NCBI GenBank assembly: GCA_038872135.1
Contig: JAVZGN010000003.1
Coordinates: forward strand, 1 to 64,000
DNA length: 64,000 nt
Origin: Candidatus Hadarchaeales archaeon
GTDB lineage: Archaea; Hadarchaeota; Hadarchaeia; Hadarchaeales; Hadarchaeaceae
Direction of reading: 5' to 3'
Shown: piece by piece, positions 10,274 to 33,404 of the stretch
Numbering within the stretch: position 1 is the stretch's first letter
Layout: each line of letters opens with the position of its first letter
Notes under the pieces: model-generated
What the model was told of the DNA's origin: nothing
Databases searched by the model: none
The model's input: the letters and a program-made list of their open reading frames with translations, nothing else
Translations under genes and position numbers: made by a program

Positions 10274-10341
10274 TTTTGATTCTCTAGAGTGGCATTGTAA
10301 AGTCACCTAAACCCGCGCATACACAATGAATTTCACGGTAG

Positions 10342-10435
10342 TGGGGTCGCCGGGATTTGAACCCAGGTCACCAGCTTTTCTGCGCCTTTCGGCGTCCCAA
10401 AGCTGGCAGGATAGACCAAGCTACCCCACGACCCC
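10342..10435 (-). tRNA. tRNA-Pro(TGG) with 19-nt canonical 37/38 intron
   Basis: Cloverleaf GGGGTCG..CCAGC TTTGGG[ACGCCGAAAGGCGCAGAAA]A GCTGG..GGTTCAAATCC..CGACCCCA; no encoded CCA. Confidence 0.95.
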
Positions 10436-13644: not shown

Positions 13645-15279
13645 TCAAAAATTCCAAATTTTAGGAGCAAAAGTTGCAAATTTTATCTGTCTTCTTTGAA
13701 TCTCTTTCTTTCCCCATTTTTTGTAATTCCACAAACTCTTTGTAATCTCAAAAGCAGATTTTTTGAATTCATTTCGCTTAGTTTGAAATCCATCATTTTT
13801 TACTCGCCGATTATACTCTCTACCGATCAATGTCAAATTTCCTAACATCTTTACTACTTTCTCGTCATGATTTGGCCAGTCGCGGCTCGGTTTTTTCGGC
13901 ATCACATGTTCGATTTCCACTTCTATTCTACCCACTGGTTTTTCTCTTGCAGCAGTTCTTCCCGCTATGTATTCTTCTATCTTTCTGAGGAGATGCTTAG
14001 CTACTGGTGTGGATAATTCCGTTAATAGCTCGAAGTTTTTTTGAAACTCCATATCGGATGGGCACATTTTCTTAGCTTCCTCTTTAATTTGCGCCAAGGT
14101 TTTATCAACATTTTTCGATTTTCTCAGCTCGATAGCCCATTCAGAATATTTCCGTTCCAGGAGGTTGGGGTTTCCCTCCCCTACTATCAAGTATCTAACA
14201 GCAATCGTATCGCATAAGTTTATCACGCTCTCAAGATCGATATTTTTAGATTTAGCAGAGAGCATTAGCGGAAGGTGCTGAGAGATCCCCATCTCTCGGA
14301 AATCTATTAGGTCGTTCCCATAAGGATCTTCCATCGCCGGGTATAACAGTTCGACATAAAAATCGGCCTCTTTTTGTAAATCTCTCGCAAATTGAAAAGG
14401 ATCTTTTTTTGTCTCCAAATATCTTACTATTTCCCCATAGAGCTTTCGTTGAGTTACCACTCCAAAGTTTGAAAGCCAAAAGTGCCTTAAAAATTTAGAA
14501 ATATCGATACCGTTCTCTCTAAGCGTCTTTTCAATCGCGGCCCAAATGGATTCCATATCTCTTTGTTTTCTACTTCGTTCTGCAAGAGCTAGAAGTTTAT
14601 TTTTCACGAGGTCTGCTACCGAAAGCTCAACTCCTCTAGTGTTTAAAACTTCGAATATAGTAAACGGATCGCTCCCCTGCCCAACAACGACAGCAACACA
14701 GACTACCTTTTCTGTTAGAAAATCTGCAAATGCAAAGAGTTCTTTGTTTTCTATTCTGCTAAATTTATCTTTCATAAATTGGTATAGTTCCTTTAGGATG
14801 TTTTTTTGTGGTCTCCCGCGCCTTCTAATCGGAGTAAATTCCGATCCTTTGCCCTCGCGCAGGTACTGTAGATACTGTGTTTCAAACCGCCCCTCTGGTG
14901 GCTGAAATATAATCATTTTTTCTCCTGTCAATTTTTCTATTTCAATGTATTCAGAAATCTTCTTGGCTTTATCCTCTAAATTTCTTTCTTTCAAAACATC
15001 TCGCAATGCTATTAAAGTGAGTGTGATTGTCCACAATCTTTGTTGACCGTCTATTATGCTTCTGAGGCTTTTACCTTCGTCTTTGAAAACCATAGCACCT
15101 AAAAAATATTCTGGCTCTTCCCCTTTGAATGCGGAGTATATGTCATCCCAAAACTGGGTATATTGCTCCTCCTTCCACGCATAAGGGCGTTGAAAAGGTG
15201 GAACTCTATATTGCACTCTCAGCAGATCCGAAATACGCTGCACGCGAGCCTCTTCTAGTATCTTCTCTTCCATTTTCAT
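13645..15279 (-). CDS. DUF262 + DUF1524 (HNH) GmrSD-like modification-dependent restriction nuclease
   Basis: VPPFQRPYAW, IIDGQQRL, IFEVLNTRG; C-terminal EIEHVMP..LGNLTL..N. Confidence 0.9.
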   Translation of the reverse strand: MKMEEKILEEARVQRISDLLRVQYRVPPFQRPYAWKEEQYTQFWDDIYSAFKGEEPEYFLGAMVFKDEGKSLRSIIDGQQRLWTITLTLIALRDVLKERNLEDKAKKISEYIEIEKLTGEKMIIFQPPEGRFETQYLQYLREGKGSEFTPIRRRGRPQKNILKELYQFMKDKFSRIENKELFAFADFLTEKVVCVAVVVGQGSDPFTIFEVLNTRGVELSVADLVKNKLLALAERSRKQRDMESIWAAIEKTLRENGIDISKFLRHFWLSNFGVVTQRKLYGEIVRYLETKKDPFQFARDLQKEADFYVELLYPAMEDPYGNDLIDFREMGISQHLPLMLSAKSKNIDLESVINLCDTIAVRYLIVGEGNPNLLERKYSEWAIELRKSKNVDKTLAQIKEEAKKMCPSDMEFQKNFELLTELSTPVAKHLLRKIEEYIAGRTAAREKPVGRIEVEIEHVMPKKPSRDWPNHDEKVVKMLGNLTLIGREYNRRVKNDGFQTKRNEFKKSAFEITKSLWNYKKWGKKEIQRRQIKFATFAPKIWNF

Positions 15280-33205: not shown

Positions 33206-33364
33206 TGGCGCCGGGGGGAGGACTCGAACCTCCGACCGCTCGGTTGCTGCATCCGGAATGGTCAGCCTTCAGAGATGGAGGCTCGCTCTTCATCCGCTCC
33301 CGGTTTTAACAGCCGAGCACTCTACCTACTGAGCTGTCGGGCCACCCAAAGGTGGAACCCCGGC
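33206..33364 (-). tRNA. tRNA-Asn(GTT) with two introns (8/9: 33336-33356; 37/38: 33245-33306)
   Basis: Removing the 21-nt and 62-nt segments gives an exact 76-nt cloverleaf GCCGGGG TA GCTC..CTCGG CT GTT AA CCGAG..GGAGG TTCGAGT CCTCC CCCCGGC G CCA; both junctions form BHB motifs. Confidence 0.88.
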
Positions 33365-33404
33365 ATCCCGGCACCAATTGTTTCTCAATCAAACTTCTAT
33401 AAAC

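Follow-up and report, generated by a model that had tools for sequence, protein, structure and literature searches.

A conserved leader copy of the acceptor strand accompanies a predicted bulge-helix-bulge intron at position 8/9 of tRNA-Asn in Hadarchaeota

Introduction

How can a tRNA gene keep an intron whose splicing motif is built from the same strand that has to form the acceptor stem? This question is raised by a tRNA-Asn(GTT) gene on the minus strand (33364–33206) of a 64,000-nt stretch of Hadarchaeota DNA (hereafter the window), which appears to contain, besides a 62-nt intron at 37/38, a 21-nt intron between positions 8 and 9. Introns whose motif competes with the acceptor stem present a folding problem, and a conserved copy of the 5′ acceptor strand in the leader of this gene and its relatives looks like a solution to it.

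Results

The Window Contains a Single-Copy tRNA-Asn Gene With Two Introns

The window lies on contig 3 of a 1.08-Mb assembly (34 contigs, 91% complete). When both introns are cut out by coordinate, the three exons (Table 1) join to 8 + 29 + 39 = 76 nt with the anticodon GTT, G73 and an encoded CCA. This in silico product folds as a cloverleaf with U8 and A9 joined, and its acceptor stem consists of seven G-C pairs. An initial reading of the locus from its sequence alone (the sequence-only reading) had claimed that removal of the two introns leaves an exact 76-nt tRNA, and the splice bears this out. The TATA-like motif TTTATAGA starts 39 nt 5′ of G1 and 31 nt 5′ of the first G of the leader copy described below.

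Another intact tRNA-Asn elsewhere in the genome, a possibility left standing by the sequence-only reading, was not found by ARAGORN, Rfam or blast. No other tRNA with the anticodon GTT is present among the 46 ARAGORN genes or the 45 Rfam tRNA matches of this 91%-complete genome, and the sole other blast match to the locus is a T-arm fragment of a tRNA-Met. The exons show the conservation expected of a gene in use. Judged in this way, the locus is the working tRNA-Asn(GUU) gene of this Hadarchaeota archaeon, present in a single copy. In the precursor, each of the two introns would be presented in a bulge-helix-bulge (BHB) motif, from which the archaeal splicing endonuclease (EndA) would remove it, and we consider it almost certain that the 8/9 intron is real and spliced by this enzyme.

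Table 1. Predicted features of the tRNA-Asn locus, with positions in the window.
Feature	Position	Strand	Basis or remark
TATA-like promoter motif TTTATAGA	33396..33403	-	Read from the sequence; our own crude regular expression
Candidate leader decoy, 10 nt, complementary to the 3′ acceptor strand and G73-C74-C75-A76	33367..33376	-	Comparison and folding
Decoy core, a 6/7 copy of the 5′ acceptor strand	33372–33366	-	
Spacer from decoy helix to G1, 2 nt	33365..33366	-	1–5 nt in relatives
Exon 1, tRNA positions 1–8	33357..33364	-	
C3–G6, 5′ strand of the BHB central helix	33362–33359	-	Within exon 1
BHB intron at 8/9, 21 nt	33336..33356	-	
Bulge base	33356	-	8/9 intron
Inner stem	33355–33351 and 33346–33342	-	8/9 intron
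Loop of the inner stem	33350–33347	-	8/9 intron
CCCG, 3′ strand of the BHB central helix	33341–33338	-	8/9 intron
Bulge bases	33337–33336	-	8/9 intron
Exon 2, positions 9–37 (D-arm, 5′ strand of the anticodon stem, anticodon GTT)	33307..33335	-	A9 at 33335
Canonical intron at 37/38, 62 nt	33245..33306	-	
Exon 3, positions 38–76 (3′ strand of the anticodon stem, variable loop, T-arm)	33206..33244	-	
3′ acceptor strand	33216–33210	-	Within exon 3; followed by G73 and the encoded CCA

The Gene Is Missed or Truncated by Standard Scanners

ARAGORN reports no tRNA at this locus, either with or without its intron mode, and the Rfam tRNA model aligns to positions 9–63 only (30.8 bits versus a cut-off of 29), which is what the sequence-only reading had anticipated of standard scanners. 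Unless the 8/9 intron is recognized, tRNA-Asn would seem to be absent from genomes of this phylum. Five genomes of relatives (G013, G019, G024, G025, and G040) have 33–43 Rfam tRNA matches each at E-values up to 0.01, which is less than a full archaeal set. Given these numbers, more hidden tRNA genes are likely, and several tRNA genes in the five genomes are probably concealed by introns.

Other calls in the genome of the window also deserve comment. At 10341–10435 of the window (minus strand) lies a 95-nt intron-bearing tRNA gene, for which ARAGORN gives an ambiguous four-base anticodon (tggg) by default and Leu(taa) with a 19-nt intron in its intron mode; it is probably a mis-called tRNA-Pro(TGG). 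Three calls are for tRNA-Ser(GGA), one of them with a 119-nt intron (G000:C1:90353-90565, G000:C2:13082-13168 and 14638-14724), and Arg(TCT), Pro(CGG) and a third CAT tRNA are all uncalled. Some of the intron-mode calls in this genome are likely wrong.

The 8/9 Intron Is Framed by a Conserved Bulge-Helix-Bulge

According to the sequence-only reading, the 8/9 intron is framed by a full BHB with a 4-bp central helix and two 3-nt bulges, and the sequence is exactly as described. C3–G6 pair with CCCG in the intron, the 5′ bulge comprises G7, U8 and the first intron base, and the 3′ bulge comprises the last two intron bases and A9. That reading also claimed flanking helices on both sides. The inner helix (CCACC/GGTGG, 5 bp, with a TTTG loop) holds up and shows compensatory changes in relatives; the outer one (G1C2/G10C11) is present, but it is only 2 bp long, invariant and therefore without covariation, and absent from the minimum free energy (MFE) fold.

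Orthologous genes were collected from 40 relatives within the same family and order, from a pattern scan of species genomes and from a metagenome scan with the same pattern. The scan of species genomes gave 23 loci, of which 22 have titles that name Hadarchaeota, Hadesarchaea, Hadarchaeum or an archaeon; the remaining one (L053) lacks an anticodon arm, lies in GC-rich sequence and was rejected as a chance match. From the first two sources 60 loci were parsed as tRNA-Asn genes (L002–L062, all but L053), corresponding to 45 unique leader-plus-gene sequences, 24 with and 21 without an insert at 8/9. The metagenome scan gave 28 loci, namely two chance pattern matches that are not tRNAs and were rejected (L064 and L090), one gene cut by a contig end (L084, left out of the counts, the leader of which does carry the copy described below) and 25 full genes, 18 of which are new and unique. 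Pooled, these sources provide 42 unique orthologous genes with 33 distinct 8/9 introns of 15–22 nt.

We applied a strict test for the BHB, in which the central helix had to be complete (four pairs) and the inner helix had to have two or more pairs in register directly after the bulge base. The strict 3-4-3 geometry is found in 31 of the 33 distinct introns, compared with 280 of 66,000 shuffled introns (0.42%), and the two introns that fail have a single mismatched pair each. The inner helix ranges from 0 to 5 bp in the relatives, with at least 2 bp in 32/33 introns, and occurs in 13 forms that include double changes (for example CCGC/GCGG versus CTGC/GCAG or CTGT/ACAG), while its loop is free to vary. 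The 3′ strand of the central helix reads CCCG (27 introns), TCCG (4) or CTCG (1), all of which pair, or ACCG (1), which does not, and the first base of the 3′ bulge is an A in all 42 genes. Five genera (g1, g8, g9, g10, and g11) hold genes with and genes without the 8/9 intron, and the exons are unchanged between them. The strict geometry, the covarying inner stem and the conserved central-helix strand and bulge A together read as the signature of a selected BHB and not of an extra arm. The central claim of the sequence-only reading, a tRNA-Asn with a BHB intron at 8/9 besides the one at 37/38, is thus strengthened by the single copy, the recurrence in 42 genes, the compensatory changes and the presence of an EndA gene.

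A genome-wide scan for 8/9-type inserts was too permissive in its first version (258 matches). After tightening, nine matches were obtained in the genome of the window, among which tRNA-Asn alone has a true insert followed by a D-arm. In relatives, tRNA-Asn genes are interrupted at two more sites by introns whose BHB geometry is canonical, namely at 22/23 (AGGU with GCCU; L026, L028, L030, L033–L037, L039, L042, L046, and L062) and at 59/60 (UUCG with CGAA; L025, L027, L031, L033, L035–L039, and L046). Four introns are present in the tRNA-Asn genes L035/L045, L046, and L068, where the available text of PMC4033280 gives a ‘maximum of three’ for Thermoproteales.

The Intron at 37/38 Contains a Conserved Core

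The last six bases of the 37/38 intron (GCAG + CA) form the central helix with C32–U35 and contribute the 3′ bulge. Its core is conserved (window and L003–L089), with a closing stem followed by a C-box-like GAUGAAGA in 47 of 59 genes, 8–9 nt antisense to the T-arm (positions 49/50–57), 6–10 variable nucleotides and a D-box-like NNGA (CUGA in the window). CCUCC is present only in genes whose T-stem starts with GGAGG. Based on these elements, the intron may represent an L7Ae-binding K-turn with a T-arm antisense element. As a box C/D guide we looked for a C box RUGAUGA, a D box CUGA, a closing stem and a guide that places its target 5 nt upstream of D/D′. Rfam C/D sRNA families score 11–13 bits on the intron compared with cut-offs of 40–54, and no conserved D′ box follows the antisense stretch. 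Read as a C/D guide by the N+5 rule, the intron has no conserved target.

The Genome Encodes a Single EndA of Strict Appearance

One EndA gene is present in the genome (178 aa; G000:C14:815-1351), with scores of 115.5 bits for PF01974 and 74.4 bits for PF02778. Its catalytic Tyr, His and Lys align with those of solved EndAs, and no paralog was detected at E-values up to 10 in the 91%-complete genome. Residues 15–177 align collinearly to the alpha4 enzyme of M. jannaschii (1a79) with a length difference of two residues, and the 9-residue insertion of the A. pernix alpha subunit is absent. The EndA type, which the sequence-only reading had left to be identified, thus looks like the strict alpha4 type. 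With such an enzyme, a full BHB would be needed. A strict enzyme fits both the conservation of the full BHB and a need to secure its formation. The RNA component of RNase P is present in the genome as well (162 bits).

A Copy of the 5′ Acceptor Strand Is Conserved in the Leader

In all 42 intron-bearing genes, the leader contains a second copy of the 5′ acceptor strand that ends 1–5 nt before G1. This copy was not mentioned in the sequence-only reading, and it is the more unusual feature of the locus. We scored it as the longest stretch of the leader with Watson–Crick or G-U complementarity to the eleven 3′-terminal bases of the precursor tRNA. By this measure, the leader is complementary to the 3′ end over 8–11 nt in every unique intron-bearing gene (24/24 from the first two sources and 18/18 from metagenomes). 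In the intron-less genes (n = 21), the complementarity is 10 nt in two (L024 and L032), 7 nt in one, and at most 6 nt in the others. As the search patterns did not ask for a leader copy, the intron-bearing sample is unbiased in this respect. Among the 63 unique genes, an intron without a copy is never found and a copy without an intron is found twice, and in each of the five genera that hold both states intron and copy are present or absent together. A leader copy matching the gene's own 5′ strand at 6/7 or better is absent from all 46 other tRNA genes of the genome that contains the window.

The seven core positions of the copy diverge from the consensus by 4.1% per site, compared with 42.7% in the 13 nt just upstream, and the spacer between copy and G1 varies in sequence as well as in length. 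Changes within the copy either are compatible with pairing (C to T, resulting in G-U) or occur at the 3′ end of the decoy in genes where its 5′ extension is longer. The base that precedes the copy is a pyrimidine in all 42 genes.

Two other uses of the leader were considered and rejected. The upstream copy cannot readily serve as the real exon 1, since the base after it is a U in a minority of the genes only, an inner helix is missing downstream of it, and A7 of the window would stand opposite C66 as a mismatch. Leader bases do not lengthen the outer helix of the BHB either, since the bases before G1 do not pair with U12–C13.

With the same crude regular expression as above, a TATA-like motif is found 27–34 nt before the first G of the copy, and 29–35 nt before G1 in 14 copy-less genes; in five more genes it detects no motif. 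Based on this spacing, the transcription start should fall at the copy or a few bases before it. As the motif is spaced to the copy as it is to G1 elsewhere, the copy sits where the ancestral 5′ end sat. The spacing therefore cuts both ways: it suggests that the copy is part of the RNA, but also that it represents the ancestral 5′ end.

GGT or GGC stands directly before G1 in 9 of the 19 genes that lack both intron and decoy (for instance L012, L029, L031, L033, L036, L038, and L039). These bases are complementary to G73-C74-C75, and pairing between leader and CCA could extend the acceptor stem of such a precursor to 10 bp. With this flank in 9/19 such genes, the pairing of the copy with G73–C75 may not be selected but inherited; if the copy is the ancestral 5′ end, as suggested, the GGT/GGC flank is explained without selection for pairing to G73–C75.

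The two genes with a copy and no 8/9 intron (L024 and L032; 10-nt copy) belong to genus g16 of family f5, and a third genome of that genus (L029) has neither. By their sequences, L024 and L032 look like intermediates of intron loss, and such genes show that a copy in the leader is compatible with maturation. The absence of intron-only genes and the presence of decoy-only genes would give intron loss a directional path.

The Leader Copy Shifts the Predicted Folding Balance Toward the Bulge-Helix-Bulge

Since the BHB and the acceptor stem both use C3–G6, they are mutually exclusive. We compared the two by constrained folding with ViennaRNA in 24 intron-bearing genes. When the leader is left out, the BHB fold is worse than the acceptor fold in 24/24 genes, by a mean of 8.4 kcal/mol at 37°C. 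When the leader is included through the copy, the fold with decoy helix and BHB is better than the acceptor fold in 22/24 genes, by a mean of 4.1 kcal/mol at 37°C; at 65°C the mean is 3.7 kcal/mol. With a minimal leader that starts at the first G of the copy, the folds differ little in energy (mean -0.3 kcal/mol, with negative values in 16/24), and the MFE structure contains the full acceptor stem in 6/24 genes. The genes that fail with the minimal leader are those with longer GGCGCC-type extensions. Even with the long leader, the MFE structure contains the complete central helix in only 8/24 genes at 37°C and 10/24 at 65°C.

For the precursor of the window itself, the MFE and centroid structures both contain a 10-bp decoy helix, in which the decoy pairs with 33215–33206, as well as the 4-bp central helix and the inner hairpin (z = -3.1). 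The sequence-only reading had argued that splicing should precede folding and 5′ maturation because the 5′ acceptor strand is sequestered in the BHB; the loss of the leaderless BHB in 24/24 genes agrees with this. In silico splicing at 8/9 does not reverse the balance: the acceptor stem is predicted to remain the weaker helix, with a mean of -4.8 kcal/mol in favor of the decoy helix, and it is possible that a spliced precursor is trapped in the latter. For this reason, the model presented below needs the RNase P cut or tertiary folding to pull the exchange of strands.

Discussion

A Decoy Model for Splicing at 8/9

We propose that the leader copy acts as a decoy for the 3′ acceptor strand. The decoy would first pair with the 3′ acceptor strand and G73, with or without the CCA. 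The true 5′ strand would then be free to form the BHB, in which the conserved 3′ end of the 8/9 intron (CCCG) pairs with positions 3–6. EndA would cut after U8 and before A9, and a ligase would join the ends. With the intron gone, the true 5′ strand could displace the decoy, and RNase P would remove the leader including the decoy, making the exchange irreversible. Mutually exclusive helices combined with a decoy exchange would force an order of events, with splicing at 8/9 first and 5′ maturation second.

In our view, it is somewhat more likely than not that the decoy occupies the 3′ strand and thereby leaves the true 5′ strand free for pairing with the intron. This function of the decoy is suggested by the association with the intron, the conservation and the folding energies; the model implies that the decoy is transcribed and needed for cleavage, and that the steps take place in the order given. 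In its full form, the proposal casts the leader copy as a decoy acceptor strand that acts in cis and is indispensable, a built-in RNA chaperone for an acceptor-strand BHB under a strict alpha4 EndA, that hard-wires the sequence of 8/9 splicing, strand exchange and RNase P cleavage; here we see about equal grounds for belief and for doubt.

In the first alternative, the intron is spliced and the copy is passive, either as a relic of the origin of the intron by a local duplication of the 5′ end or as a linked passenger, with the BHB forming co-transcriptionally. We regard this as unlikely, if clearly worth weighing. Co-transcriptional folding could form the BHB before the 3′ strand is made, leaving the decoy unnecessary, and the energetic advantage of the decoy is nearly gone with the minimal leader. 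The copy is placed relative to the TATA-like motif as G1 is in copy-less genes, and it often has the GGT/GGC flank seen before G1 in intron-less genes, both as expected of an ancestral 5′ end. As all intron-bearing genes probably go back to a single ancestor, the 42 of 42 are not 42 independent events, and with intron and decoy within 40 bp of each other allele replacement by recombination could move both without a functional link. In addition, L024 and L032 show that a copy can exist without an intron. However, a neutral copy should decay, and the copy is held at a divergence of 4.1% per site next to sequence at 42.7%, while the spacer and the intron loops vary freely. Despite its substitutions, the copy can still form 8 or more pairs with the 3′ end in all 42 genes. 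Deletion between the direct repeats would moreover readily yield intron-only alleles, of which there are none among the 63 genes, while the decoy-only state does occur.

A second alternative keeps the conservation but places its cause in DNA or transcription, with the copy as an initiator or initially transcribed sequence and no role for RNA pairing. The predicted transcription start at or near the copy is compatible with this, and the invariant pyrimidine before the copy would suit a pyrimidine-purine initiator and pairing with G73 equally well. Such an element is lacking in the genome's other 46 tRNA genes, however, and a promoter role does not explain why the copy is complementary to the 3′ end of its own gene. 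We know of no archaeal initiator element with 7–11 conserved GC-rich positions, and consider this explanation quite improbable.

That the mature tRNA retains the 21-nt insert between positions 8 and 9 in the form of an extra arm, or that the gene is a pseudogene, is scarcely credible: in the MFE structure of the leaderless precursor the acceptor stem does form and the insert folds into a side hairpin, but an extra arm needs neither a CCCG-A-N tail complementary to positions 3–6 nor the exact 3-4-3 geometry of 31/33 introns, the insert comes and goes within five genera on unchanged exons, and this is the only tRNA-Asn found, with exons conserved as in a working gene.

If the decoy model is true, an obligatory decoy would add a new class to the elements of pre-tRNAs and offer a general way for introns to survive in the acceptor region. 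Once confirmed, it would show how a strict endonuclease tolerates introns at disruptive positions, and it would be a simple case of an enforced order between splicing and processing by RNase P.

Comparison With Known Systems

Archaeal tRNA introns are listed at 20/21, 22/23, 25/26, 29/30, 30/31, 45/46, 53/54, 56/57, and 59/60 in the available text of PMC4090602 and PMC4033280, and the former also mentions, ‘in an extreme case’, a 3/4 intron in Thermoproteales. The available text of PMC8450103 states that tRNAscan-SE 2.0 extends candidates by 60 nt for introns near the ends. The view of the sequence-only reading that non-canonical introns are mostly reported from the D-loop to the T-loop therefore does not stand as it was put, with 3/4 named in the one source and end-near introns provided for in the other. 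Position 8/9 is not among the intron positions named in the available text of PMC4090602 and PMC4033280. A search of the archaeal literature for a tRNA intron at ‘positions 8 and 9’ gave nothing on such an intron as judged from titles and the start of abstracts, with positions written with a slash being inaccessible to a text search.

The 8/9 intron resembles the non-canonical BHB introns of Thermoproteales and others in being, as predicted, spliced by proteins and defined only by a transplantable BHB at its junctions. As in those archaea, several introns per gene are possible and standard scanners miss the genes. Unlike here, the broad-specificity (alpha-beta)2 EndAs of Thermoproteales and others accept relaxed motifs, while a strict-looking alpha4 enzyme goes with a full 3-4-3 BHB in our case. 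The consulted portions of the literature describe no leader copy of the acceptor strand for the BHB introns of other archaea, and we found no description of one in what was accessible of the literature on archaeal tRNA introns, BHB motifs and pre-tRNA leaders.

A precedent comes from the same lineage and the same type of EndA. In the available text of Kaneta et al. (2018; PMC5829648), the alpha4 EndAs of Hadesarchaea (genome YNP_N21) are linked to markedly increased disruption of tRNA genes, which is ascribed to an ‘L3’ loop of the enzyme. We did not identify an ‘L3’ loop in the EndA studied here, which differs from the M. jannaschii enzyme by two residues in length, and the available text of that study gives neither intron positions nor a leader element. 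Asgard archaea, according to the accessible part of a 2026 preprint, likewise have many introns per gene that escape annotators and show enrichment at canonical BHB boundaries; this is a different phylum, its cases in the acceptor and junction regions are set out in a supplementary note, and the word ‘leader’ is absent from the main text.

Permuted and split tRNA genes share with the present gene that sequences outside the mature tRNA are needed for the splicing motif and that the ends are matured after splicing (PMC4033280 and PMC3978253, in the available text). In those genes, unlike here, the flanks form the BHB itself; the leader of the tRNA-Asn genes stays outside the BHB and would compete for the 3′ acceptor strand.

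In transcription attenuators, anti-terminator and terminator are two exclusive helices that share a strand, and a third segment decides between them. By analogy only, the decoy would work in the same way, with exclusive helices and a deciding third segment. Unlike an attenuator, the decoy switch would not respond to a ligand or a ribosome and would be resolved by irreversible RNA cleavage, and we claim no membership of that class. Set against these systems, the 8/9 intron is of a familiar type. Its position is unusual and perhaps unreported, the lineage was known before for its disrupted tRNA genes, and the conserved decoy strand is the part that we think is new.
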